Part shown: positions 2,645 through 57,366 of the stretch, piece by piece
Layout of the letters: every line of letters begins with the position of its first letter
Numbering within the stretch: the stretch's first letter is position 1
The notes under the pieces: model-generated
The model's database searches: none
Seen by the model: only the letters and a program-made list of their open reading frames with translations
Told to the model about the DNA's origin: nothing
Translations under genes and position numbers: made by a program
From: an uncultured Eubacteriales bacterium
Lineage (GTDB): Bacteria; Acidobacteriota; Aminicenantia; Aminicenantales; Saccharicenantaceae
Reading direction: 5' to 3'
Length of the DNA: 64,000 nt
Assembly (NCBI GenBank): GCA_964523615.1
Contig: CAZFZU010000002.1
Location: 33,682-97,681 of the forward strand

Positions 2645-3562
2645 ATGTCCGACGCCATCCGCATCCGGGACCTCGAGAAGAGCTTCCGGCTCGGTTTCAT
2701 CCCCAAGACCCGGCCCGTCCTCCGGGGCATCAGCCTGGCCGTGCGCGAGGGAGAGATCTTCGGCTACCTCGGCCCGAACGGCGCCGGCAAGACGACGACC
2801 ATCAAGTGCTTGCTCGGCCTGATCCGGCCCGACGCCGGGACGGCCGAGATCTTCGGCCGCTCTTCCCTGTCTCCCCGCTCCCGCGCGTCGCTCGGCTTCC
2901 TGCCCGAGAACCCCTATTTCTACGACTACCTGACGGCCCGCGAGTTCCTGGCCTTCACGGCCGACCTGTTCGGCCTGGCCCGCGGGACCAAGGAGGAGCG
3001 GATCGCCCGCCTGCTCGCGCTCGTCGGCCTCGAGCGGGCGGCCGACCTGCCCCTGCGCAAGTACTCCCGGGGCATGCTCCAGCGGGCCGGGCTGGCCCAG
3101 GCCCTCGTCAACGATCCCAAGCTGGTCATCCTCGACGAGCCCCTCGGCGGCATGGACCCGCTCGGGCGCAAGGAGATCCGGGACATCATCGTCCGCTTCA
3201 AGGACGAGGGCAAGACCGTCTTCTTCACCTCGCACATCCTCCAGGACATCGAGATGATCTGCGACCGCGTCGCCATCGTCGTCGGCGGCCGCATCGTCAA
3301 GGAGGGCCTCCTCAGCGACCTCGTCTCCGAGAAGGTCCTGTTCACCGAAGTGACCGTGGACGGGGTCCCGGCCGAGGCCTTCGCCGGCCTCGGCGAGAGC
3401 GTCTCCGCCCAGGGCGGCCGGGTCTGGCTCAGGGTCTTCGAGGAGGCCCGGATCGCCGCGGTCCTCGATCGCGTCCGCGAGCGCCGCGGCCGTCTCGTCG
3501 CCCTCAGCCCGCGGACAGAGACCCTGGAGGACATCTTCGTCGAAACGGTGACACGGACATGA
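2645..3562 (+). CDS. ABC transporter ATP-binding protein (ABC-2 exporter type)
   Basis: Walker A GPNGAGKTT, signature YSRGMLQR, Walker B LVILDEPLGGMD, H-loop TSHIL. Confidence 0.9.
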   Translation: MSDAIRIRDLEKSFRLGFIPKTRPVLRGISLAVREGEIFGYLGPNGAGKTTTIKCLLGLIRPDAGTAEIFGRSSLSPRSRASLGFLPENPYFYDYLTAREFLAFTADLFGLARGTKEERIARLLALVGLERAADLPLRKYSRGMLQRAGLAQALVNDPKLVILDEPLGGMDPLGRKEIRDIIVRFKDEGKTVFFTSHILQDIEMICDRVAIVVGGRIVKEGLLSDLVSEKVLFTEVTVDGVPAEAFAGLGESVSAQGGRVWLRVFEEARIAAVLDRVRERRGRLVALSPRTETLEDIFVETVTRT

Positions 3563-4323
3563 AGATCGCGGCCATCGCCGGCATCACCTTCAAGGAGGCC
3601 AAGCGGGACCGGGTCCTGTACCTCCTGTTCTTCTTCGCCGCGCTCGGCATCGCCGGCTCCCGGGTCCTGGCCGTGCTGACGGTCGGCGACCGGGCTAAGA
3701 TCGTCAAGGACGTCGGGCTGGCCTCGATCTCGGGCTTCGGCATCCTCATGGCCATCCTCATCGGGACCGGCCTGGTCTACAAGGAGATCGACAAGAAGAC
3801 CATCTTCACCCTGCTCGCCAAGCCGCTCCACCGGGCCGAGTTCATCCTGGGCAAGTTCCTGGGCCTGGTCCTGACCCTCCTGATCATGACCGCGGCCATG
3901 ACGGCCATCTTCCTGGCCCTCGTCTGGGCCCACACCGGCCGCGTCGAGGCCTCCCTCCTCGTGGCCGTGGCCTACATCTTCCTCGAGCTCGTCCTGATCA
4001 CGGCCGTGGCCGTCCTGTTCTCCTCCTTCTCGACGCCCATCCTGAGCTCGCTCTTCGCCCTGGCCTTCACCCTCATCGGGCACCTGTCCTGGGGCCTCGA
4101 GCTGATCCTCAAGAAGATGGGCCCGGGCGCCGGCCGGACGCTGGTCAAGGTCCTCTACGCGGTCCTGCCCGACCTCGAGAACTTCAACTTCAAGACGGAG
4201 GTCGTCCACGGCCTGCCCATCCCGCCGGCCATCTTCCTCTCGTCGTTCCTCTACGGCGTCTGCTACACGGCCTTCGTCCTCGGCCTGGCCGTCCTCGTTT
4301 TCCGACGCCGCGACTTCATCTAG
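3559..4323 (+). CDS. ABC-2 family transporter permease
   Basis: The ATG at 3559 overlaps the upstream stop codon (ATGA). 254 aa with about six hydrophobic helices. The start MKIAAIAGITFKEAKRDRVLY is typical of ABC-2/NosY-like permeases. Confidence 0.8.
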   Translation: MKIAAIAGITFKEAKRDRVLYLLFFFAALGIAGSRVLAVLTVGDRAKIVKDVGLASISGFGILMAILIGTGLVYKEIDKKTIFTLLAKPLHRAEFILGKFLGLVLTLLIMTAAMTAIFLALVWAHTGRVEASLLVAVAYIFLELVLITAVAVLFSSFSTPILSSLFALAFTLIGHLSWGLELILKKMGPGAGRTLVKVLYAVLPDLENFNFKTEVVHGLPIPPAIFLSSFLYGVCYTAFVLGLAVLVFRRRDFI

Positions 4324-5429: not shown

Positions 5430-6196
5430 CCGTCGTCTTCGTGGCCGTGGCCGGGCTCGTCCTCGGCAGCTTCTTCAACGTCGTCATCTACCGCCTGCCG
5501 CGCGGCTTGAACCTGTCGCGCCCGCCCTCGGCCTGCCCCGGCTGCGGCGCCCGCATCAAGCCCTACGACAACGTCCCGGTCCTGTCGTACCTCTGGCTCG
5601 GCGGCAAGTGCCGCAGCTGCCGCCGGCCCATCTCCCCCGTCTATCCGGCCGTCGAGGCCCTGACCGCCGCCGGCTTCGTCCTGGTGTACTACCATTCCGG
5701 TCGCGAGCTGGGCCTGCCGTTCGTCGCCGGCTGCCTGTTCACGAGCGCCCTCGTCGTCCTCGGCTTCATCGATTATTACCACCAGGTGCTGCCCAACGCC
5801 GTGACCATGCCCGGGCTCGTCCTGGCCCTGGCCTACGCCTTCGTCCGTGACGACCTGACCTTTCGGAGCGCCCTGCTCGGTGCCGTCGTCGGCGCGGGAT
5901 TCCTCCTCATCGTCTACGGCGTTTATTACCTCGTCCGGAAGAAGGAGGGCTTGGGCATGGGCGACGTGACCATGATGCTCATGGTCGGCGCCTTCCTCGG
6001 GCCCCTGAGGACGCTGCTCGTCCTCATCCTGGGCTCGCTCATGGGCGCCCTGGTCGGCCTCTATCTCATCAGGCGCAAGGGCCGCGACCTCCAGTTCGCC
6101 CTGCCCTTCGGCACCTTCCTGGCCCCGGCCGCGTTCGTCGCCCTGCTCTGGGGCGAGCGCATCGTCGGGGCCTATCTGTCGCTCTACAAGCGCTAG
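5417..6196 (+). CDS. pilD: Prepilin peptidase / N-methyltransferase (peptidase A24)
   Basis: Start METLTVVFVAVAGLVLGSFFNVVIYRLP. Four-Cys motif CPGCG...CRSCRR. Catalytic Asp boxes GMGDVTMMLMVGAFLG and PFGTFLAP. Confidence 0.9.
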   Translation: METLTVVFVAVAGLVLGSFFNVVIYRLPRGLNLSRPPSACPGCGARIKPYDNVPVLSYLWLGGKCRSCRRPISPVYPAVEALTAAGFVLVYYHSGRELGLPFVAGCLFTSALVVLGFIDYYHQVLPNAVTMPGLVLALAYAFVRDDLTFRSALLGAVVGAGFLLIVYGVYYLVRKKEGLGMGDVTMMLMVGAFLGPLRTLLVLILGSLMGALVGLYLIRRKGRDLQFALPFGTFLAPAAFVALLWGERIVGAYLSLYKR

Positions 6197-7617
6197 CCCA
6201 GGGCGGCCCGCCGCTTTCTCACCCGGACGACGAAGATCTCCGTCGTGTCTCCCGTCACCTTGAACGCCTCCCCGACCGGCAATCCCGGCGCCCAGACGAT
6301 CCGGCCGCGGGACAGGAGGACGGGCAGCCGGTCGCGCTCGGCCGCCGGGACGGCCCTGGCCCGCAGGGCCTCCTTGAGCTTCTTGCGGCCCGGCGCGCCG
6401 AGCGGGCGGTAGGCGTCGCCCGGCCGCCGGCCGCGGACGACGAGGGGAAAGGTCAGCCGCCCGGCGTCGAAGCGGGCCAGGCGACGGTCGTCGCCGCGGA
6501 GGGAGCGGCGGACGAGAGCCCGCGTCTCGAACGCCCCCGACAGGACGAGGCCGGCGGGCCCGATCTCCAGGTCCGCGCGGCCGTCCCAGCGGAGCTCGTA
6601 GGAGCGGGCCGGGGCTGCGGACGGGCGCTTCAGCCCGAGCCTCCCCCTCTCGCGGCGCAGGACGAGTCCTTTGCGGAGGGAGATCTCCCGGCCCTCGCCG
6701 AGCGCGAGGGAGGCCGCGACGTCGTCGAATGAGACGTCCCGCAGGCCGCCGGCGACCCGGCCGAGGAACTCCCGGGCGACGCGCCGGGCCAAGGCCGGCC
6801 AGAGGAGGGGCAGGGTCTTGAGGTCGAGAGAGGCCTTTCTCCCGGCGCCGGCGATGAACTCGTCGGCGAGCTCGCGGACGAAGCCCTCGAGGAGGGCCTC
6901 GTCCTCCCGGGCCAGCCCGGCCAACCGGGCCAGGTGGGCGGCGACGCGCGGCTCGTAGCGGCGCTCGAGCTCGGGCAGGAGCTCGGCCCGGACGCGGTTG
7001 CGAAGGAAGCGGAGATCGCGGTTGGAAGCGTCCTCGCGGAAGGGCAGCCCTTCGACGGCCAACCAGTCCCTCAGATCGGGCCCGGCGATCCCCAAGAGCG
7101 GCCGCACGACCGGGCACGGCGGTCCGGGAGAGACGGGGGGGATGCCGCCCAGTCCGAGCAGTCCCGTGCCGCGCATCAGGCGCATGAGGACGGTCTCGGC
7201 CTGGTCGGTCAGGGTGTGGCCGGTGGCGATCTTGGTCGCCCCGGCCGCGGCGGCGGCCCGCCGCAAGAATCGATAGCGGAGGTCGCGGCCGGCCTCCTCC
7301 AGGTTGAGCTTCTTCCGGGCGGCTTGGGCCCGGACGTCGGCCGAGCCCGTCGCCAGCGGCACGGTCCAGCGGCGGGCCAGGCCTTCGACGAATCGAGCGT
7401 CCTCTCCGGACTCCGGCCGCAGGCGATGGTCGAAGTGGGCCAGCCGGACCTCGAGCGGCATCTCGTCGCGGAGCCTCAGGAGGAGCGCGGCCAGGGCCAC
7501 CGAGTCGGCGCCGCCCGACACGGCGGCCAGGACGCGGTCGCCGGGGACGACGAGCCCTCCCAGGGCGGCCGTCCGGAAGGCCCGGTAGACGCGGTCCGGC
7601 TTCCGGGGCGATGTCAT
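6193..7617 (-). CDS. tilS: tRNA(Ile)-lysidine synthetase
   Basis: PP-loop SGGADSV near the N-terminus. 474 aa, with the long C-terminal substrate-binding extension typical of TilS. Confidence 0.9.
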   Translation of the reverse strand: MTSPRKPDRVYRAFRTAALGGLVVPGDRVLAAVSGGADSVALAALLLRLRDEMPLEVRLAHFDHRLRPESGEDARFVEGLARRWTVPLATGSADVRAQAARKKLNLEEAGRDLRYRFLRRAAAAAGATKIATGHTLTDQAETVLMRLMRGTGLLGLGGIPPVSPGPPCPVVRPLLGIAGPDLRDWLAVEGLPFREDASNRDLRFLRNRVRAELLPELERRYEPRVAAHLARLAGLAREDEALLEGFVRELADEFIAGAGRKASLDLKTLPLLWPALARRVAREFLGRVAGGLRDVSFDDVAASLALGEGREISLRKGLVLRRERGRLGLKRPSAAPARSYELRWDGRADLEIGPAGLVLSGAFETRALVRRSLRGDDRRLARFDAGRLTFPLVVRGRRPGDAYRPLGAPGRKKLKEALRARAVPAAERDRLPVLLSRGRIVWAPGLPVGEAFKVTGDTTEIFVVRVRKRRAALG

Positions 7618-7655
7618 TGTCGGGCTCGGTTCATGGATCCAAGGGCCGGGAGAAA

Positions 7656-7729
7656 TGGCGGCGGAGGGATTTGAACCCCCGACACTGCGGATATGAGCCG
7701 CATGCTCTGACCAACTGAGCTACGCCGCC
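7656..7729 (-). tRNA. tRNA with CAU anticodon (elongator Met or lysidine-dependent Ile2; not an initiator)
   Basis: 74-nt cloverleaf built by hand: acceptor GGCGGCG/CGCCGCC, D arm GCTC-AGTTGGTCA-GAGC, anticodon arm TGCGG-CTCATAT-CCGCA, variable loop GTGTC, T arm GGGGG-TTCAAAT-CCCTC, discriminator A. CCA is not encoded. The 1-72 pair is G-C and there is no GGG/CCC anticodon stem, so it is not an initiator. Confidence 0.9.
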
Positions 7730-46182: not shown

Positions 46183-48186
46183 ATGGAGACGACCCGGACC
46201 TCTCTGCCCCCCGAAGCGTATCAGGAGCTCCCGCCCGGCAAGACCTACACGCCCTACGTCCCGGCCGGGGCCGACGTGCCCGAAGCGACCGTCCGCTCGG
46301 TCGTCTGGGGTCTGGTCATGTCCGTGTTCTTCACTTTCTCCATCGCCTACCTGGGCCTCAAGGTCGGCACCGTGCCCGAGGCGGCCATTCCCGTGGCCAT
46401 CCTGGCCGTGGGCATCGGCTATCTCTACAAGCGCAAGAGCACCATCCTCGAGAACGTCATCCTGCAGTCCATCGGAGCCGCTTCCGGGGCCCTGGTGGCC
46501 GGGGCCATCTTCACCATCCCGGCCCTCTACATCCTCGGCCTGCCCACGGACGTCGTCAAGATCTTCCTGTCGACCTTCCTCGGCGGCGCCCTGGGCGTCC
46601 TGTTCCTGACGCCGCTCCGGCGCTACTTCTGCGTCGAGCAGCACGGCAAGCTGCCCTTCCCCGAGGCCACGGCCACGACCGAGATCCTGGTCTCGGGCGA
46701 GTCGGGCGGCCGCCAGGCCGGGGCCCTCATCCTGGGCCTCGTCGTCAGCGGCGCCTACGAGTTCCTGGCCATCGGCGTCCGCCTGTGGAACGAGCTCATC
46801 GACTTCCGCTTCCTGCCCTTCATGGACAGCCTGGCCGTCAAGACCAAGATGGTCCTCAAGCTCGACGCCCTGTCGGCCTTCCTCGGCCTCGGCTACGTCA
46901 TCGGCCTGCGCTACAACGCCGTCATCGTCGCCGGCGGCCTGCTGTCCCATTTCGCCTTCATCCCGGCCATCTGGTTCCTCGGCCGGCACGTCCCCGGCCT
47001 GGTCTATCCGGGCACGGTGCCCATCGTAGAGATGAGCGAGACGCAGATCTTCGCCACCTACGTCCGCAACATCGGCATCGGGGCCATCTTCATGGCCGGC
47101 GTCCTGGGCATCATCAAGTCCATGCCGGTCATGGTCCGGTCGTTCTCGCTCGGCTTCCGGCAGATCTTCAAGGGCCGGCGGGAGGGCGCCGCGGCGGCGC
47201 CCCGGACCGACCGCGACCTCGACATGCGGACCATCATCCTGGGCCTCCTGGCCGTGTCCGCGGGCCTGTTCCTCTATTTCCTGTGGATCTCCAACGTCAA
47301 GCTGGCCGTCATCGGCGTCCTGGTCTGCCTGCTCCTGTCGTTCCTGTTCACCACGGTCGCCGCCAACGCCATCGCCATCGTCGGGACCAATCCCGTCTCG
47401 GGCATGACCCTGATCACGATCATCCTGTCGAGCGTCCTGCTGCTCGGGGCCGGGCTGTCGGGCACGGACGGCATGGCCGTGGCCCTGCTCATCGGGGCCG
47501 TCGTCTGCACGGCCCTGTCGGTCTCGGGCTCGTTCATCACCGACCTCAAGATCGGCTACTGGCTCGGGGCGACGCCGCGCAACCAGGAGCGCTTCAAGTT
47601 CGCCGGCATCCTGGTCTCGGCCCTGACCGTCGGCGTGGCCATCGCCATCCTCGACAAGGCCTTCTCCTTCCAGAGCGGGGCCCTGGCCGCCCCGCAGGCC
47701 AATCTCATGGCCACGGTCATCAAGTCGATGATGTCGCGCGAGCCCGTGACCTGGCTCCTGTACGCCATCGGGGCCTCGGTCGCCCTGACGGCCGAGCTGG
47801 CCAAGGTCCCTCCGCTGGCCTTCGCCCTGGGCATGTACCTGCCCCTGCCCCTGACGACGCCGCTCCTCGTCGGCGGCTTCCTGTCGCACCTCGTCCGGAA
47901 GTCGACCAAGGACAAGGACCTGGCCGAGCGGCGGGTCAACCGCGGCACGCTCATCTCTTCCGGGTTCATCGCCGGCGGGGCCCTCATGGGCATCGTCCTG
48001 GCCCTGCTCAAGCTGGCCGGCCTCGACCGCCACATCAGCCTCGGCGTGTCCATGGTCCTGGAGAACGGGCGCTGGGTCGACGGGGCCGCGGCGGGCTGGT
48101 TCTCGGGCCTCGGCCAGGTCGTCAGCCTCGTCGCCTTCATCCTGCTCGGGGCGTTCGTCTACTTCGACGCCCGGCGGACGAAATAA
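46183..48186 (+). CDS. OPT-family oligopeptide transporter
   Basis: 667 aa with about 16 transmembrane segments. The N-terminal region (T.R..V.G...S..F......YLGLKVG....A.IP.AIL) is typical of bacterial OPT proteins. Confidence 0.85.
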   Translation: METTRTSLPPEAYQELPPGKTYTPYVPAGADVPEATVRSVVWGLVMSVFFTFSIAYLGLKVGTVPEAAIPVAILAVGIGYLYKRKSTILENVILQSIGAASGALVAGAIFTIPALYILGLPTDVVKIFLSTFLGGALGVLFLTPLRRYFCVEQHGKLPFPEATATTEILVSGESGGRQAGALILGLVVSGAYEFLAIGVRLWNELIDFRFLPFMDSLAVKTKMVLKLDALSAFLGLGYVIGLRYNAVIVAGGLLSHFAFIPAIWFLGRHVPGLVYPGTVPIVEMSETQIFATYVRNIGIGAIFMAGVLGIIKSMPVMVRSFSLGFRQIFKGRREGAAAAPRTDRDLDMRTIILGLLAVSAGLFLYFLWISNVKLAVIGVLVCLLLSFLFTTVAANAIAIVGTNPVSGMTLITIILSSVLLLGAGLSGTDGMAVALLIGAVVCTALSVSGSFITDLKIGYWLGATPRNQERFKFAGILVSALTVGVAIAILDKAFSFQSGALAAPQANLMATVIKSMMSREPVTWLLYAIGASVALTAELAKVPPLAFALGMYLPLPLTTPLLVGGFLSHLVRKSTKDKDLAERRVNRGTLISSGFIAGGALMGIVLALLKLAGLDRHISLGVSMVLENGRWVDGAAAGWFSGLGQVVSLVAFILLGAFVYFDARRTK

Positions 48187-48204
48187 GGACACGGAGGGAA
48201 GACC

Positions 48205-49152
48205 ATGAAAGCCAACAAGCTCTACGCCGCCGCCGACCGGGCCGTCAACCAGGCCCTCCGGCTCAAACCCGGCGAGAAGTACCTTCTCGTGACCGACACG
48301 CCCAAGCTGGAGATCGCCGAGGCCCTGGCTTTCCACGCCAAGAAGGCCGGCGCCGAGGTCACGACCTACCTGATGACCGAGACCCTGCGGCCGATCACGG
48401 AGCCGACCCGGCAGTTCAAGGAGCTCATCGCCGGGGCCTCGGCCACGACCTACCTCCTCGAGGGCCGCTTCCCCGAGAAGCCCTTCCGCGGCTTCATGGT
48501 CGCCGAGGGCCAGAAGCACGGCCGCATCTGCATGATGCCCGGCATCACCCGGGACATGATGGAGCGGCTGGTGGCCATCGACTTCTCGGAGATGGCCGCC
48601 TTCACCAGGAAGGTCGTCCGGGCCGTCAAGGACGCCGGCGAGATCGTCGTCACCAACGCGGCCGGGACCGAGATCGCCTTCAGCGTCGCGGGCCGCGACT
48701 GGCACGAGGACGTCGGCGACATCGCCAAGAAGGGCGTCCACGGCAACCTGCCGGCCGGCGAATGCTTCACCTGCCCGGTCGAGGAGACCTTCACGGGCAA
48801 GGTCGTCATCGGCCTCATCGACGACAAGCTGGGCCCCGGCGAGATGGTCTTCGAGAAGGGCCGCCTCGTCGCCCACAAGGGCGCCGGCATCGCCGAGGTC
48901 ATCAAAACGGTCGGCGACGACCCGACGGCCCGGATGATCGGCGAGTTCGGCATCGGCACCAACAAGGGCGCCCGCATCTCGCCCAACATGCTCGAGGCCG
49001 AGAAGGCCTTCGGCACGGTCCACTTCGCCATCGGCGACTCGTACGGCATCGGCCGGAACAAGAGCAGGTTCCACTTCGACGCCCTGGTCGACAAGGTCAC
49101 CATCACGGCCAAGGGCAAGGTCATCGCCAGGAACGGCAAGTTCCTCATTTAA
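48205..49152 (+). CDS. M29-family (aminopeptidase T-like) aminopeptidase
   Basis: The C-terminal block EFGIGTN...LEAEKAFGTVHFAIGDSYG is characteristic of peptidase M29. Confidence 0.8.
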   Translation: MKANKLYAAADRAVNQALRLKPGEKYLLVTDTPKLEIAEALAFHAKKAGAEVTTYLMTETLRPITEPTRQFKELIAGASATTYLLEGRFPEKPFRGFMVAEGQKHGRICMMPGITRDMMERLVAIDFSEMAAFTRKVVRAVKDAGEIVVTNAAGTEIAFSVAGRDWHEDVGDIAKKGVHGNLPAGECFTCPVEETFTGKVVIGLIDDKLGPGEMVFEKGRLVAHKGAGIAEVIKTVGDDPTARMIGEFGIGTNKGARISPNMLEAEKAFGTVHFAIGDSYGIGRNKSRFHFDALVDKVTITAKGKVIARNGKFLI

Positions 49153-49296
49153 TGGGGGACATGATACCTATTTCCCTATTTCCCGGGACCCCGGCAGGGA
49201 CGCGGGCGGAACGAGAGAACTGAGATGACGAGGTACTGACGTGCGTGAACCCAAAGAGATCATGGGAAATGGGGAAATAGGTATCATGTCCCCATT
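49151..49296. repeat. 146-bp element with 33/34-nt terminal inverted repeats (long-stem hairpin or MITE-like)
   Basis: The left arm is AATGGGGGACATGATACCTATTTCCCTATTTCCC (49151-49184). The right arm is GGGAAATGGGGAAATAGGTATCATGTCCCCATT (49264-49296). They differ by one G indel and one T/C difference that becomes a G-U pair in RNA. The loop is 79 nt. Confidence 0.85.
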
Positions 49297-50455
49297 TGAC
49301 AAGATCATCGACCGGACCGCGACAGAGTCCATGAAGTGGGTCCATCCCCGCCGGGACCTCGGTGTCCCCGACGCCATCCCCATGTGGGTGGCCGACATGG
49401 ACTTCGAGGCCCCGCCGGCCGTCGTCGAGGCCCTGGCGCGCCGCGTCGGGCACGGCGTCTTCGGCTATCCGGAGACGCCGCCGTCGTTCTTCGAGGCCGC
49501 GGCCGGATGGCTGCGACGGCGCCACGGCTGGCCCGCCGAGCCGGGCTGGCTGACCATGACGCCGGGCCTGGTGCCGGCCCTGAACTTCATCGTCCGGGCC
49601 CTGACGAAGCCGGGCGACCCGGTCATCGTCCAGCCGCCGGTCTATCATCCCTTCTACTACGCCATCGAGAACAACGGGCGCCGCGTCGTCCGCAACCCGC
49701 TCCGCTTCGACGGCCGGCGCTATACGATGGACCTCGACGACCTGCGGACCAAGATCGACGCCGCCGGCCGGCTGCTCATCCTGTGCTCCCCCCACAATCC
49801 CGTCGGCCGGGTCTGGGACCGCGAGGAGCTCGAGGCCCTCGGCCGCATCGCCGTCGAGCGCGACCTCGTCGTCGTCTCCGACGAGATCCACCACGATCTC
49901 GTCTACCCCGGCCGCCGCCACCACGTCTTCGCCGCGCTCCAGCCGGAGCTGGCCCAGCAGACGATCACCTGTCTCGCGCCGAGCAAGACCTTCAACATCG
50001 CCGGGCTGAGCACGGCCGTCGTGGCCGTCCCCAATCCCGACCTGCTGAAGAAATTCGAGGATGAGAAGGAGCGCTCGGGCTTCGACCTGGGGAACGCCCT
50101 CGGCATCGTCGCTTTCGAGGCCGCCTACCGCTACGGCGAGGCCTGGCTCGACGAGCTCCTGCCCTACCTCGCGGCCAACGTCGACCTCATCGAGCGCTTC
50201 CTGGCCGAGCGCCTGCCCGAGATCAAGCTCGTCCGGCCCGAGGGGACCTACCTGGCCCTCCTCGACTGCCGCGGCCTGGGCCTCGCGCCCGAGGCCCTCG
50301 GCGACTTCTTCCTCAAGCGCGCCCGGGTCTTCTTCAGCGACGGGCGGATGTTCGGCGAGGAAGCGGCCGGCTTCGTCCGCGTCAATTTCGGCTGTCCCCG
50401 GTCCGTCCTCCGCGAAGCCTTGGAGCGCGTCGAGCGGGCCGTCCGCGCCCGTTAG
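49286..50455 (+). CDS. PatB/MalY-type PLP-dependent C-S lyase (aminotransferase class I/II fold)
   Basis: The N-terminus MSPFDKIIDRTATESMKW is the conserved FD..IDR..T.S.KW motif. It also has LCSPHNPVGRVW and a PSKTFNIAGL lysine motif. The start could alternatively be the ATG at 49262. Confidence 0.85.
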   Translation: MSPFDKIIDRTATESMKWVHPRRDLGVPDAIPMWVADMDFEAPPAVVEALARRVGHGVFGYPETPPSFFEAAAGWLRRRHGWPAEPGWLTMTPGLVPALNFIVRALTKPGDPVIVQPPVYHPFYYAIENNGRRVVRNPLRFDGRRYTMDLDDLRTKIDAAGRLLILCSPHNPVGRVWDREELEALGRIAVERDLVVVSDEIHHDLVYPGRRHHVFAALQPELAQQTITCLAPSKTFNIAGLSTAVVAVPNPDLLKKFEDEKERSGFDLGNALGIVAFEAAYRYGEAWLDELLPYLAANVDLIERFLAERLPEIKLVRPEGTYLALLDCRGLGLAPEALGDFFLKRARVFFSDGRMFGEEAAGFVRVNFGCPRSVLREALERVERAVRAR

Positions 50456-50464
50456 AGGGACGCC

Positions 50465-53400
50465 ATGGACATCGGCGGGCACCCCCGGACCCGGGCCGCC
50501 GCGACCGACGCCGTCCGGCTGGCCCGCGACCTCTTCGGCCTCGAGGCGACGGCCCGCCCCCTTCCCAGCGAATACGACGACAACTTCCGGCTCGACACCG
50601 CGGCGGGCGAGGTCCGGGTCCTCAAGGTCATGCACCCAATGCGCGACCCCGGCTTCGTCGACATGCAGTGCGCGGCCCTGGCGGCCATCGCCGAGCGCGC
50701 GCCCGGGCTGCCGGTCCCGCGCGTCGTCCCCGGCCTCGACGGGCGCCCCTCCGCGACTGCCGCGCTCGCCGACGGCGCGCCGCGCTTCGTCTGGATGCTC
50801 TCCTACCTCGACGGGCGCCCGCTGGCCGGCCTGCGGCCGGTGACGCCGGAGCTTCTCGCCGAGCTCGGCGCCGCCCTGGCCCGCCTCGACCTGGCCCTGG
50901 CCGGTTTCGCCCACCCCGCCGCCCGCCGCGAGCTCAAATGGGACCTGGCCAAGGCCGGATGGGTTCGCGGCCATATCGGCCTCATCGCCGACCCGCGGCG
51001 CCGGGCCCTGGTCGAAAGGGTCCTGGACCGCTACGACGCCGAGGCCGCGCCGGCCCTGCCCCGCCTGCGGCGGAGCGTCGTCTACGGCGACGCCAACGAG
51101 CACAACGTCCTCGTCAGGGTCGAGCCGGGGCGGCCGGCCCGCCTGTCCGGCCTCATCGACTTCGGCGACATGATCGAGACCGTGACCGTCGCGGAGGCCG
51201 CCGTGGCCGCGGCCTACGTCTCGTTCGGCGACCCTGACCCGCTCGAGGCCGTCCGGCCGCTCGTCGGGGCCTATCACCGCGTCCTCCCGCTCATGGACGA
51301 GGAATTGGCCGTCCTCGACGTCCTGATCCGGACGCGCCTTGCGGTCAGCGTCGTCAACTCCGCCTGCCGCTCCGCCGCCGAGCCGGACGACCCCTACCTC
51401 ACGGTCAGCGAAGCCCCGGCATGGGCCGCAATGGAGGCCTTCGACCGGGTCCCGCCCCGCCTGGCCCATTGCGCCTATCGCGACGCCTGCGGCCTGCCGC
51501 CCGCGCCCCACGGGCCGGCCGTCGTCCGCTGGCTCGGGGAGCGGCGCGGTTCCTTCGCGCCCGTCCTCGACCGCGATCCGCGGACGGCCCCCGTCGCCGT
51601 CCTGGACCTCTCGGTCGGCAGCCGGACGCTCGGCGCCGATCCAGCAGGGCTCGAGACACCGCGCCTCACGGAAACGGTCTCCCGCGTCCTGGCCGAGGCC
51701 GGGGCCGTCATCGGCGTCGGCCGCTACGACGAGGCCCGGGCCGTCTACACGACCGGCGCGTTCGCGGCCGGCGCGGGCCGTGCCGCGGAGAGGCGGACCG
51801 TCCATCTCGGCATCGACTTGAGCGTCCCGCCGGGGAGCGCCGTGCGCGCCCCCCTCGACGGCGCGGTCCATGTCGTCGCCGAGAACGCCGCGCCCAAGGA
51901 CTATGGGCCGCTCGTCATCCTGCGCCACGAGACCCCGGCCGGCGAGCCCTTCTTCACGCTCTACGGACACCTCGATGCGGCGTCGGTCGCCGGTCTGGCG
52001 CCGGGGCGGACGATCCGGGCCGGCGAGGCCTTCGCCGCCGTCGGCGCCCCGCCGCGGAACGGTGACTGGTGGCCGCACGTCCACGTCCAGATCGTTCTCG
52101 ACCTCCTGGGCCTCGACGCGGGCTTCCCCGGCGTCGCCGCGCCCGGCCGGCGATCGCTCTGGACGGGCCTCTCCCCCGACCCCAACCTCATTCTCGGCAT
52201 CCCGGCCGACCGCTTCCCCCGGCCCGAGCCGGACATATCCGAGACCCTGGCCGCGCGGCGCGCCCACATCGGGCCGAGTCTCAGCGTCTCCTACAGCGAG
52301 CCCCTCAAGATCGTCCGCGGCTGGATGCGGCATCTCTATGACGACATGGGGCGGGCCTACCTCGACGCCTACAACAACGTCCCCCTCGTCGGCCACAGCC
52401 ATCCCCGCGTCGTCCGGGCCGTGCAGGAGCAGATGGGCCTGCTCAACACGAACACCCGCTATCTCCACGACAACCTCGTCCGCTACGCGGCCCGGCTCAC
52501 GGCCCTGATGCCCGGGCCCCTCCGTGTCGCCTACATCCTCAACTCGGCCAGCGAGGCCAACGAGCTGTCCCTGCGCCTGGCCCGGACGCACGCCGGCCGC
52601 GAGGACGTCGTCGTCCTGGAGTCGGCCTACCACGGCCACACGACCGGTCTCGTCGACCTCAGCCCTTACAAGTTCGACGGGCCCGGCGGGCGCGGCCGCA
52701 AGCCCTGGGTCCACGTCGCGCCTCTCCCCGACGACTACCGCGGCCCGTTCAAGCGCGACGATCCCGAGGCCGGGCCGAAATACGCCGCGGCCGTCGGTCG
52801 GCTCCTGGCCGAAGAGGTCGCCCCCCGGGGCGGGCCGGCCGCCTTCATCGCCGAGACCCTGCCCAGCGTCGCCGGGCAGATCGTCCTGCCGCCCGGCTAC
52901 CTCCGCGAGGCCTACCGCCACGTCCGGGCGGCCGGGGGCCTGTGCATCGCGGATGAGGTCCAGGTCGGCTTCGGCCGCCTGGGCACGCGGTTCTGGGGCT
53001 TCGAGACGCAGGACGTCGTCCCGGACATCGTCGTCCTCGGCAAGCCCATCGGCAACGGCTTCCCGCTGGCGGCCGTCGTGACGACCGAGGCCGTCGCGGC
53101 CTCCTTCGCCAACGGCATGGAGTTCTTCAGCACCTTCGGCGGCAATCCCGTGGCCTGCGCCGCGGGCCTGGCCGTTCTCGACGTCATGGCCGAAGAGGGC
53201 CTTCAGGAGCGGGCCCTGCGGGTCGGCGAACACTTCATCGCCGGGCTCCGGCGGCTGGCGGAACGGCACCTCATCGTCGGCGACGTCCGCGGCTCGGGCC
53301 TGTTCCTGGGGATCGAGCTCGTCCGCGACCGCCGGACCCTCGAGCCGGCGGCGGCGGAAGCCGCTTATGTCGTCGAGCGCCTGCGCGAGCGGGGCATCCT

Positions 53401-53551
53401 GACCGGCACGGACGGCCCCCTCCACAACGTCCTCAAGGTCCGCCCGCCCCTCTGCTTCACGGACGAGGACGCGGATCTCTTCGTTTCCGTCCTGGACGAG
53501 ATCCTGGCCGAGGACCCGGCCCGGGCCGGCCTCGCCCCCGCCGCCCGCTAA
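50465..53551 (+). CDS. Three-domain fusion: APH-fold kinase, M23/LytM-like domain, class III aminotransferase-fold (phospho-lyase-like) domain
   Basis: The kinase domain has [13 protein letters not shown] and LIDFGDM. The M23 domain has HLGID (HxxxD) and PHVHVQ (HxH). The aminotransferase-III domain has [18 protein letters not shown] and [11 protein letters not shown] (PLP lysine). 1028 aa. Confidence 0.85.
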
Positions 53552-54909: not shown

Positions 54910-54979
54910 GGGGGACGACGAGGGGGACATGTCCCCGGGGGTCGCAGCCCCCGTGTCCCGTGGTAGAATACGGGGGACA
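54910..54979. repeat. Cluster of GGGGGAC / GGGGACATGTCCCC palindrome units around the pirin promoter
   Basis: GGGGGAC at 54910-54916. Perfect palindrome GGGGACATGTCCCC at 54923-54936. GTGTCCCG (54953-54960) and GGGGGACA (54972-54979) bracket TGgTAGAAT, an extended -10 element at 54961-54969. Confidence 0.8.
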
Positions 54980-55898: not shown

Positions 55899-55930
55899 GG
55901 GGGGACACGTCCCTGAGGGACATGTCCCCC
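55899..55930. repeat. Inverted pair of the palindrome unit (13 of 14 bp stem, TGA loop) immediately after the pirin stop codon
   Basis: GGGGGGACACGTCCC-TGA-GGGACATGTCCCCC. Confidence 0.85.
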
Positions 55931-57296: not shown

Positions 57297-57366
57297 GGGG
57301 GACATGTCCGCACAACAGGGGGACACGTACCCGGTACATGTCCCCATCGCGCGAGTACGTGTCCCC
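57297..57366. repeat. Four palindrome units upstream of the MFS transporter gene
   Basis: GGGGGACATGTCCG (57297-57310). GGGGGACACGTACCC (57318-57332) abuts GGTACATGTCCCC (57333-57345). GAGTACGTGTCCCC (57353-57366). Confidence 0.85.

Follow-up and report, generated by a model that had tools for sequence, protein, structure and literature searches.

Genes for RAYT-like proteins that have on either side not REPs but lengthy terminal inverted repeats (TIRs) sharing the sequence GGGGWSAS have been described under the names TIRYT and TIRtron (Di Nocera et al. 2013, PMC3733652). The TIR families are moderately abundant, often forming dimers or clusters, and the most sharply defined TIRYT group is found in Acidobacteria (PMC3733652). 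TIRYT corresponds to TnpA-Y1 subclass 2.1 and to group 1 of Bertels (Quentin et al. 2018, PMC6006769). The proteins of this subclass have a median length of 238 aa and contain the motifs NHVH, W[EQ] or FQ, and YIELNP or Y[IV]HLNP (PMC6006769, Table 1), along with a C-terminal helix-turn-helix (HTH)-like domain similar to Bac_DnaA_C, HTH_23 or HTH_28 (PMC6006769), and their TIRs start with GGGG[AT][CG]A[CG] (PMC6006769, PMC3733652). For RAYT group 1, the associated 16-mers in the flanks were no more than modestly frequent (Bertels et al. 2017, PMC5581495). Here we analyze a 146-base pair (bp) palindromic element located at positions 49151-49296 of a 64-kb window, that is, the whole 64,000-nucleotide (nt) stretch of contig CAZFZU010000002.1 (assembly GCA_964523615.1) from an uncultured bacterium of the Aminicenantales. 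Very probably, this element is one copy of a dispersed non-coding palindromic family that consists of two ~34-nt TIRs (consensus AAAATGG-GGGACATGATACCTATTTCC-CATTTT) separated by a variable spacer, a REPIN-like “TIR dimer” tied to the TIRYT class (RAYT group 1, TnpA-Y1 subclass 2.1).

The element exactly fills the gap between the stop codon of a gene for an M29-like aminopeptidase and the start codon of a gene for a PatB/MalY-type aminotransferase (hereafter, the lyase), and its sequence is TAA-TGGGGGACATGATACCTATTTCCCTATTTCCC, followed by 79 nt and by GGGAAATGGGGAAATAGGTATCATGTCCCCATT. A repeat search identifies 30-nt inverted arms (49155-49184 and 49264-49293) that are 97% complementary and separated by 79 nt; the pairing extends to 49151-49296 if one extra G is allowed in the left arm. 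This agrees with the initial annotation of the locus, made from the sequence alone, which described inverted arms of about 33 nt with one extra G around a 79-nt loop. The same annotation correctly placed the left end of the element inside the TAA of the peptidase gene, and the lyase ATG at 49286, preceded by the purine-rich stretch GGGAAATGGGGAAATAGG, within the right arm. It further reported a tandem octamer present twice in each arm, which holds for the left arm, with two tandem copies of CCTATTTC (49167-49174 and 49175-49182), but not for the right arm, in which the second copy is imperfect (GAAATGGG). When the 30-mer arm is searched for with up to 3 mismatches, just the two arms are found in the 64-kb window, and none in 100 shuffled sequences. 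The arms are A+T-rich and therefore conspicuous in a window with a G+C content of about 70%. The RNA fold predicted for 49140-49310 has an energy of -77 kcal/mol, compared with -49 +/- 4 kcal/mol for shuffled sequences (z -6.8), and the minus strand of the element folds about equally well, as expected of a DNA palindrome. An Rfam scan of 48900-49600 at E-values up to 10 returned only chance matches to miRNA- or snoRNA-like families, none of them above 18 bits (gathering scores, 40-90), and a promoter and terminator scan detected neither at the element.

The suggestion of the initial annotation that the element might have copies elsewhere is borne out. An exact scan for the arm 20-mer GGGACATGATACCTATTTCC, with one genome per species, found it in at least 104 genome stretches, which were fetched as 8-kb segments. 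Among the matches listed, the hosts are mostly Candidatus Aminicenantes or Aminicenantales metagenome-assembled genomes (MAGs), along with Acidobacteriaceae MAGs, a few “Eubacteriales” MAGs and some Caulobacterales (Phenylobacterium, Caulobacter). The fetched stretches encompass at least 199 distinct arms, with a conserved block of ~34 nt, and at least 56 complete elements; up to 28 arms, a lower bound, are present in the sampled part of a single MAG. Typically, a copy consists of (A)AAATGG-GGGACATGATACCTATTTCC-YATTTT, a spacer of 13 to ~320 nt and AAAATRG-GGAAATAGGTATCATGTCCC-CCATTT(T), the spacers of the complete elements measuring 13-196 nt and those of all copies taken together reaching 320 nt. 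Direct repeats that would indicate a target-site duplication flank none of the 56 complete copies, and the outer flanks are themselves inverted (AAAATGG...CCATTTT). A single arm folds no better than its shuffled versions (z -1.0 and +1.4) and thus is not itself palindromic; the consensus minimal dimer forms a near-perfect hairpin, with an energy of -30.9 kcal/mol as DNA (z -12). Counting covariation between the arms is uninformative because the copies were ascertained by the exact 20-mer in one arm.

Most of the copies are extragenic. In the G+C-rich loci (L012-L113; L numbers denote the loci compared with the window), 46 of the 49 complete copies lie outside long open reading frames (ORFs), and about half are located no more than 13 nt from a stop codon, mostly, just 3' of genes. 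In about 15 of the 49, the A-rich outer end overlaps a TAA, as it does in the window. In G+C-rich genomes, TAA is expected to be a rare stop codon; the family element may supply stop codons or prefer TAAA-like targets. In Caulobacterales (Phenylobacterium aquaticum and Caulobacter; L105 3098-3166, L019, L043, L074, L100 and L106), the identical 20-nt core is present in inverted pairs that lack the AAAATGG outer part, and L043 also contains TIRYT fragments. On the sequence evidence, the identity of the core appears to point to either horizontal spread or an extremely constrained recognition sequence.

The repetitive character of the element is also apparent in metagenomes. All sampled words of 48900-49600 are contained in 20 public metagenomes (sludge, digesters, wastewater, sediment and soil), and contigs from 4 of these were aligned to 47500-50500 for the analysis of depth and joints. 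In these 4 metagenomes, word depth rises about 10-fold from the flanks to 49116-49216, contigs terminate at 49151/49154 and 49179, and many contigs connect 49175-49180 with 49272-49273 via other, mostly short A+T-rich loops, for example, ATTTATTAATTA, AATTAAATA and CCGAGGGTCCGAAAAAATA. Outside 49151 and 49297, the sequence varies from contig to contig. Of the Logan contigs, 10 code for exactly this lyase, and every one of them has 49152 or 49154 as its first position, indicating that assembly is interrupted by the repeat. In 4 RNA runs, there were sparse metatranscriptome contigs of the peptidase and lyase genes and of further family copies, none of which spans the window copy.

The connection to an IS200-like Y1/HUH protein emerges from loci in which the arms are farther apart. 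In L045, inverted arms separated by 0.76 kb enclose a 222-aa ORF (3179-3847) that is recognized by the Pfam model Y1_Tnp (E 2e-13). Among the NCBIfam models, the REP-associated tyrosine transposase scores best, with 62.8 bits, compared with 17 bits for IS200, and the best PDB match of the ORF, a distant one, is Escherichia coli TnpA-REP (4ER8, E 1.4e-4). Homologues of this protein were detected by tblastn beside the arms in 13 of the 104 fetched stretches; a gene present at 1-2 copies per genome is estimated to occur in far fewer than 1% of random 8-kb stretches. In at least 7 loci (L045, L092, L081, L090 with two tandem genes, L014, L052 and L093), all from genomes other than that of the window, the gene is bracketed by inverted arms that lie 17-80 nt from its ends or overlap them. 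In the fetched loci, arms 0.6-0.8 kb apart around a gene always enclose Y1/HUH and never a DDE transposase; the 1.7-kb arm-to-arm interval of L079 contains no transposase, only unrelated ORFs, one of which enters from outside. The associated proteins are 222-242 aa long and contain NHVH, LWQ or LFQ, and YIEQNP or YVSLNP, a close although not exact match to the motifs of subclass 2.1, followed by a conserved C-terminal stretch, GRPLG...LE...GR...PGRP. The GGGGWSAS start of the published TIRs is matched at 8 of 8 positions by a variant arm subtype, GGGGACAC (L116, L093 and L081), and at 7 of 8 by the main type, GGGGACAT, the window copy included. A search of plasmids with the TIRYT protein yielded only “transposase” genes of ~35% identity.

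Some TIRYT loci have additional features. L090 (3100-3200 on the minus strand and 5654-7723), from an Acidobacteriaceae MAG, encodes two tandem TIRYT genes with arms around each, and contains a tandem array made of the ATGATACCTATTTCCC part of the arm. The TIRYT-like protein of L077 (3077-3763) has Phe in place of the catalytic Tyr motif (FVENNP) and no flanking arms, and the L093 copy (5941-6579) has an apparent frameshift; these two copies may be decayed, domesticated or products of assembly errors.

Compared with the described TIRtrons, the family analyzed here shares the ~230-aa Y1/HUH gene within long inverted repeats that are not self-complementary, the repeats that start with GGGGACA(T/C), and the moderate abundance of copies that occur as monomers, dimers and clusters. 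It differs in its distribution, being found in the uncultured Aminicenantes, where we encountered no description of the repeat in the literature searched; in the much greater length of the conserved repeat (~34 nt), with a 20-nt core identical across phyla (Acidobacteriota and Caulobacterales); in the dominance of dimers with variable spacers; and in that the C-terminal HTH-like domain is not detected by Pfam. With the REPIN-RAYT systems known from Pseudomonas and Enterobacteria (Bertels & Rainey 2011, PMC3116915; PMC3337134), the family shares the arrangement of two inverted units and a spacer resulting in a long hairpin, non-coding and mostly extragenic copies, a RAYT gene flanked by the same repeats and long persistence at orthologous sites. 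The REPs of those systems, however, are short imperfect palindromes with a GTAG tag and belong with RAYT groups 2 and 3, whereas the arm described here is not palindromic, has no GTAG/CGTC end, is accompanied by a protein of the group 1 type, and is present in tens rather than hundreds of copies (lower bounds). Given that the classic REP hallmarks, the palindromic unit and the GTAG tag, are both missing, “REPIN-like TIR dimer” is the accurate label. The REP/BIME elements of E. coli with TnpA-REP (PDB 4ER8; PMC3479197) offer the closest solved protein structure and likewise include repeats that are located just 3' of genes and transcribed as hairpins, but the protein similarity is distant, and the sequence and architecture of the repeat are different. 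The Correia/NEMIS, ERIC and RUP miniature inverted-repeat transposable elements (MITEs; reviewed in PMC3733652) are similar in being non-coding and 70-300 bp long, with TIRs of 15-30 bp; they insert next to genes and can change expression of their neighbours via RNA structure, but derive from DDE insertion sequences with target duplications, neither of which is seen here. Thus, the element is a known kind of miniature repeat element, and the only unusual feature of the window copy is the lyase start codon within the right arm.

We compared the peptidase-lyase junction of the window, where the lyase starts with MSPFDK, with that of the syntenic locus L082 (Aminicenantes, ~79% nucleotide identity) and of the metagenome loci L115, L116 and L117 (lyases 74-77% identical). 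The comparison, which had been put forward in the initial annotation as an empty-site test, revealed both occupied and empty states. L082, the lyase of which is 69% identical to that of the window and starts with MSPIFDK, carries an element of the same arm type with a 97-nt spacer (ATGTCCCCCATTTTTGAC). L116 (lyase 74% identical) carries an element of a co-varied arm subtype, GGGGACACAATACTCATTTCC ... GGAAATGAGTATTGTGTCCCC, with an in-frame GTG at the position of the ATG. L115 (77%) has no element, reads CTCATTTAA-AAC-ATGTCCCGCTTTGACAAG (TAA-AAC-ATG) and encodes the N-terminus MSRFDK. L117 (74%) has no arms but a G+C-rich stretch of ~130 nt that includes an N-terminal extension, after which the lyase still reads ...SPFD; at 770-900 of this locus, GGGACATGAC is found at the start codon and the extension, 20 residues long, ends in ...SPFD; the stretch may be a decayed copy absorbed into the coding sequence. 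The L115 orthologue also bears on the start of the lyase, which the initial annotation considered might lie well downstream of the right arm. In L115, an in-frame TAA precedes by two codons the ATG-TCC-C that this locus shares with the window, so that its ATG must be the start, and ATG 49286 is likely to be the true start codon of the window lyase; for most of the distant homologues, the alignment begins at residue 4.

The window and L082 have identical arms, even though the identity of their lyases is just 69%; in the outer right arm, the indels add up to 3 nt and thus preserve the reading frame. Spacer similarity is weak: the spacers of the window and L082 are barely alignable (z 2.1), those of the window and L116 give a z of 3.0, and no similarity was detected between those of L082 and L116. 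Judging from these comparisons, we conclude that the arms are probably constrained or homogenised and the spacer is not. The junction element would be either ancient, with losses, or have entered the same site more than once, for example, by repeated homing to CATGTCCC-like sites; the weak similarity of the spacers cannot separate one ancient insertion from repeated insertions. The “empty” site of L115 retains ACATGTCCC, a near-match to the arm foot TCATGTCCCC.

Under the TIR dimer interpretation, the repeats would be made, spread or maintained in trans by a TIRYT acting on single-stranded DNA hairpins, a mechanism proposed for REP/REPIN-RAYT systems and suggested by the published description of TIRtrons. 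The arms would be identical across species as the recognition sequence of the TIRYT, or would be homogenised against other copies, while the spacer drifts. Several observations weigh against this interpretation. The link between TIRYT and TIRs itself was proposed from genomics in two papers that report no biochemical activity of a TIRYT on TIRs and name binding and cleavage assays as future work (PMC3733652, PMC6006769). The NCBIfam score of the L045 protein falls under the curated cut-off of 80, and a Pfam search at E-values up to 10 gives just Y1_Tnp, without the C-terminal HTH-like domain of subclass 2.1. By tblastn, there is no Y1/TIRYT gene in the 64-kb window, which also contains only one long family copy, and a search for such a gene elsewhere in the same genome, by alignment of metagenome contigs to the TIRYT gene of L077, gave only 50-nt matches to conserved motifs, on contigs of similar depth. 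At the junction, the L115 site may be a deletion remnant or a pre-existing repeat-like target rather than a naive site. Furthermore, the window copy is fixed in 20 of the 20 metagenomes that have the locus, with no polymorphism seen within the species, and the same site is occupied in lineages that are ~25-30% diverged in protein sequence, so the copy is old and not recently mobile.

The window contains another, shorter type of repeat. Palindromes similar to GGGGACATGTCCCC are present at 54923, 55901/55916 and 57298/57319/57332 (6 matches with at most 2 mismatches, compared with 0.76 expected); they are confined to this part of the window and all lie within the next three sizeable intergenic gaps, where the initial annotation had noticed them (in the last gap, at 57298-57345). 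The annotation took these palindromes for the long element with its interior deleted. In support of this idea, the short unit, of the form GGGGACAYGT(A/C)CC, equals the outermost 13 nt of a long arm less a single base, and a CATG-to-CATG deletion of the long element would yield exactly GGGGACATGTCCCC. However, the short unit recurs in other genomes as a family of its own, 27-31-nt hairpins GGGGACAYGTACC-N1-3-GGTACRTGTCCCC in which the CATG arm is always opposite a CACG/CGTG arm, so that one strand has a G.T pair where the other has an A.C mismatch, and the palindrome at 54923 is absent at the corresponding spot of L082. Judging by these patterns, the short palindromes are best read as a related short repeat family that shares the GGGGACA foot, and appear to be neither conserved operators nor simple deletion products.

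How the hairpin relates to the start codon is the crux of the most serious alternative, namely, that the element is a dedicated cis-regulatory RNA, such as a thermometer, an RNase III site or a protein-dependent switch, which exists to control translation initiation of the lyase operon. The initial annotation offered a helix sequestering the lyase start as one of two non-exclusive readings, and the structural part of this reading is correct: in the predicted folds of all three element-bearing loci (the window, L082 and L116), the ATG or GTG pairs with nucleotides located 8-11 nt 3' of the stop codon. The stop codon of the window is at the foot of a very stable stem that also covers the Shine-Dalgarno (SD)-like purine run, and the same geometry recurs in the other two loci, with the frame kept between the window and L082 across the indels of the outer right arm and with an in-frame GTG in L116 at the same position despite the other arm subtype. 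A dedicated regulator, however, should not occur as the same hairpin beside unrelated genes, and the same arms are found at unrelated loci, dozens of them across many genomes, with loops down to 13 nt and, for the most part, a position immediately 3' of a gene; they also flank transposase-like genes. The element is missing from the orthologous junctions of L115 and L117, has no Rfam match and folds equally well on the minus strand. The distribution of the family and its link to a transposase-like gene make a dedicated riboregulator unlikely, and any regulation would be secondary to the origin of the repeat. The second reading of the initial annotation, a miniature inverted-repeat element, fares better, given the presence of multiple copies in multiple genomes and the orthologous empty site. 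A classical MITE in the strict sense, that is, an internally deleted DDE-transposase insertion sequence that moves by cut-and-paste and generates target-site duplications, would also have long TIRs and a variable non-coding interior, but is very improbable, with direct repeats at 0 of 56 complete copies, inverted outer flanks, exclusively Y1/HUH genes between arms 0.6-0.8 kb apart and only unrelated ORFs in the 1.7-kb interval of L079.

Two further explanations concern DNA-level control of the gene cluster. The GGGGACA/TGTCCCC half-sites (GGGGACAYGTCCCC) cluster in four consecutive intergenic gaps, with the excess over expectation given above, and by visual reading some are located just upstream of promoter-like hexamers, so they could form an array of operators for a DNA-binding regulator that co-regulates peptide and amino-acid uptake genes. 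We consider this about as improbable as the classical MITE because the motifs turn up elsewhere in unrelated genomic contexts, among them the space between convergent genes in other genomes; lack conservation at the orthologous spot of L082; and form hairpins in both orientations, with the strand-specific G.T / A.C asymmetry typical of REP-type repeats, whereas the long arms run 20 nt past the half-site and are linked to TIRYT genes. The inverted repeats around a short segment just upstream of a gene are also what would be expected of an inverton, in which the 79-nt segment flips to switch the lyase operon on and off. In the 4 metagenomes, however, there are no strand-changing joints or contigs of the opposite orientation; the region contains no promoter-like site, and many family copies have loops of 13-16 nt, too short for a promoter; and from 41.7 to 58.7 kb of the window, no recombinase gene lies beside the element. 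An inverton can therefore be practically dismissed.

A TIR dimer at this junction could still affect translation. In a polycistronic mRNA, the ~30-bp stem would pair the SD-like run and AUG of the lyase with the nucleotides immediately 3' of the peptidase stop codon, and translation of the lyase would then need the stem to be opened or processed by the terminating ribosome, RNase III or a helicase. The TAA-AAC-ATG arrangement of the empty site looks like tight translational coupling; with the element present, the stem would first have to be opened or cleaved for such coupling to occur. The helicase of the ribosome reaches ~11 nt from the P site, so a terminating ribosome would open only a few base pairs at the start of the stem. 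The idea that termination at the TAA suffices to uncover the AUG is weakened by the position of the AUG partner, 8-11 nt 3' of the stop codon, which is at or beyond this reach; RNase III cleavage or another helicase would be at least as likely to open the stem. A hairpin near a stop codon may also alter the expression of the upstream gene or the stability of its mRNA. Reportedly, in work by Liang, Rudd and Deutscher (Mol Cell 2015), REP hairpins within ~15 nt of a stop codon can reduce upstream gene expression via ribosome stalling, and by analogy, a similar effect on the peptidase gene could be envisaged.

Sequestration of the start codon at the RNA level is plausible as either a side effect or a co-opted function of the repeat. 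Co-option in its full form is a tentative and rather doubtful proposal: the right arm would be the source of both the SD-like run and the lyase start codon (ATG in the window and L082, GTG in L116), the left arm would abut the stop codon, and the hairpin, by joining stop and start, would tie translation of the lyase to termination of, or processing after, the peptidase gene. A linked possibility, suggested by the ACATGTCCC at the empty site of L115, is that TIRYTs might home to sites already resembling the foot of their own repeat. The coordinates of all these features are collected in Table 1.

Table 1. Features of the element, its flanking genes and the related short repeats (window coordinates unless a locus is given)
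Feature	Position	Strand	Remarks
TAA stop codon of M29-like aminopeptidase gene (48205-49152, Peptidase_M29)	49150..49152	+	Foot of stem; overlaps first two bases of left arm
Left terminal inverted repeat (arm) AATGGGGGACATGATACCTATTTCCCTATTTCCC	49151..49184	.	Starts with the final two bases of the M29 TAA; fits family consensus aAAATGG-GGGACATGATACCTATTTCC-cATTTTt (199 distinct arms)
Variable spacer, 79 nt, G+C-rich	49185..49263	.	Neither ORFs nor matches to Rfam families or promoters found
Right terminal inverted repeat (arm) GGGAAATGGGGAAATAGGTATCATGTCCCCATT	49264..49296	.	Holds SD-like purine run and lyase ATG
ATG start codon of PatB/MalY-type aminotransferase class I/II gene (Aminotran_1_2, C-S lyase-like; 49286-50455)	49286..49288	+	Within right arm; paired with 49160-49162; gene callers choose same start
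Solo 14-nt palindrome GGGGACATGTCCCC	54923..54936	.	Equals outer feet of arms joined; absent at orthologous place of L082
Short hairpin repeat GGGGACACGTCCC-TGA-GGGACATGTCCCC	55901..55929	.	DNA fold -12.8 kcal/mol, z -4.1
Cluster of short-family units	57298..57366	.	GGGGACATGTCCGC (57298-57311); GGGGACACGTACC-C-GGTACATGTCCCC (57319-57345); AGTACGTGTCCCC (57354-57366)
Short hairpin copies elsewhere	L038 219-247, 874-902, 967-995; L022 1771-1801; L056 2422-2450; L101 5138-5166		Both orientations in L038

The genes downstream of the lyase show variation of their own. The ORF at 50465-53551 (1028 aa) fuses an M23 peptidase domain with a class-III aminotransferase domain and is missing from the otherwise syntenic locus L082. 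Some strains of the same species contain an extra segment of ~1.2 kb at the position corresponding to ~53517-53551 (L001-L003, 4366-5557), between this fusion gene and an amino-acid permease gene; the segment encodes a Peptidase_C1 gene on the opposite strand, and there is no repeat at its borders.

Overall, what appeared to be a candidate new riboregulator is replaced here by a documented class, the TIR/REPIN-like repeats tied to IS200-like tyrosine transposases. What is new is the description, from an uncultured phylum, of a family of long and highly conserved repeats that belongs to the little-studied TIRYT (RAYT group 1) type, a group that earlier work credited with at most modest repeat families. 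In practical terms, these repeats break short-read assemblies of Aminicenantes exactly at gene junctions. The interest of the locus rests on the size of the family and its conservation across phyla, on this breaking of assemblies and on the location of a start codon inside the repeat, at a junction that also exists in natural empty and variant states. These states form a natural series, an empty site, two arm subtypes and a decayed site, with the start codon of a metabolic gene inside the repeat, which could be used to test the effect of the hairpin on translational coupling as well as target choice by the transposase. If homing to repeat-like sites is indeed involved, it would explain the presence of two arm subtypes at one site and provide the first handle on target choice in the TIRYT class.

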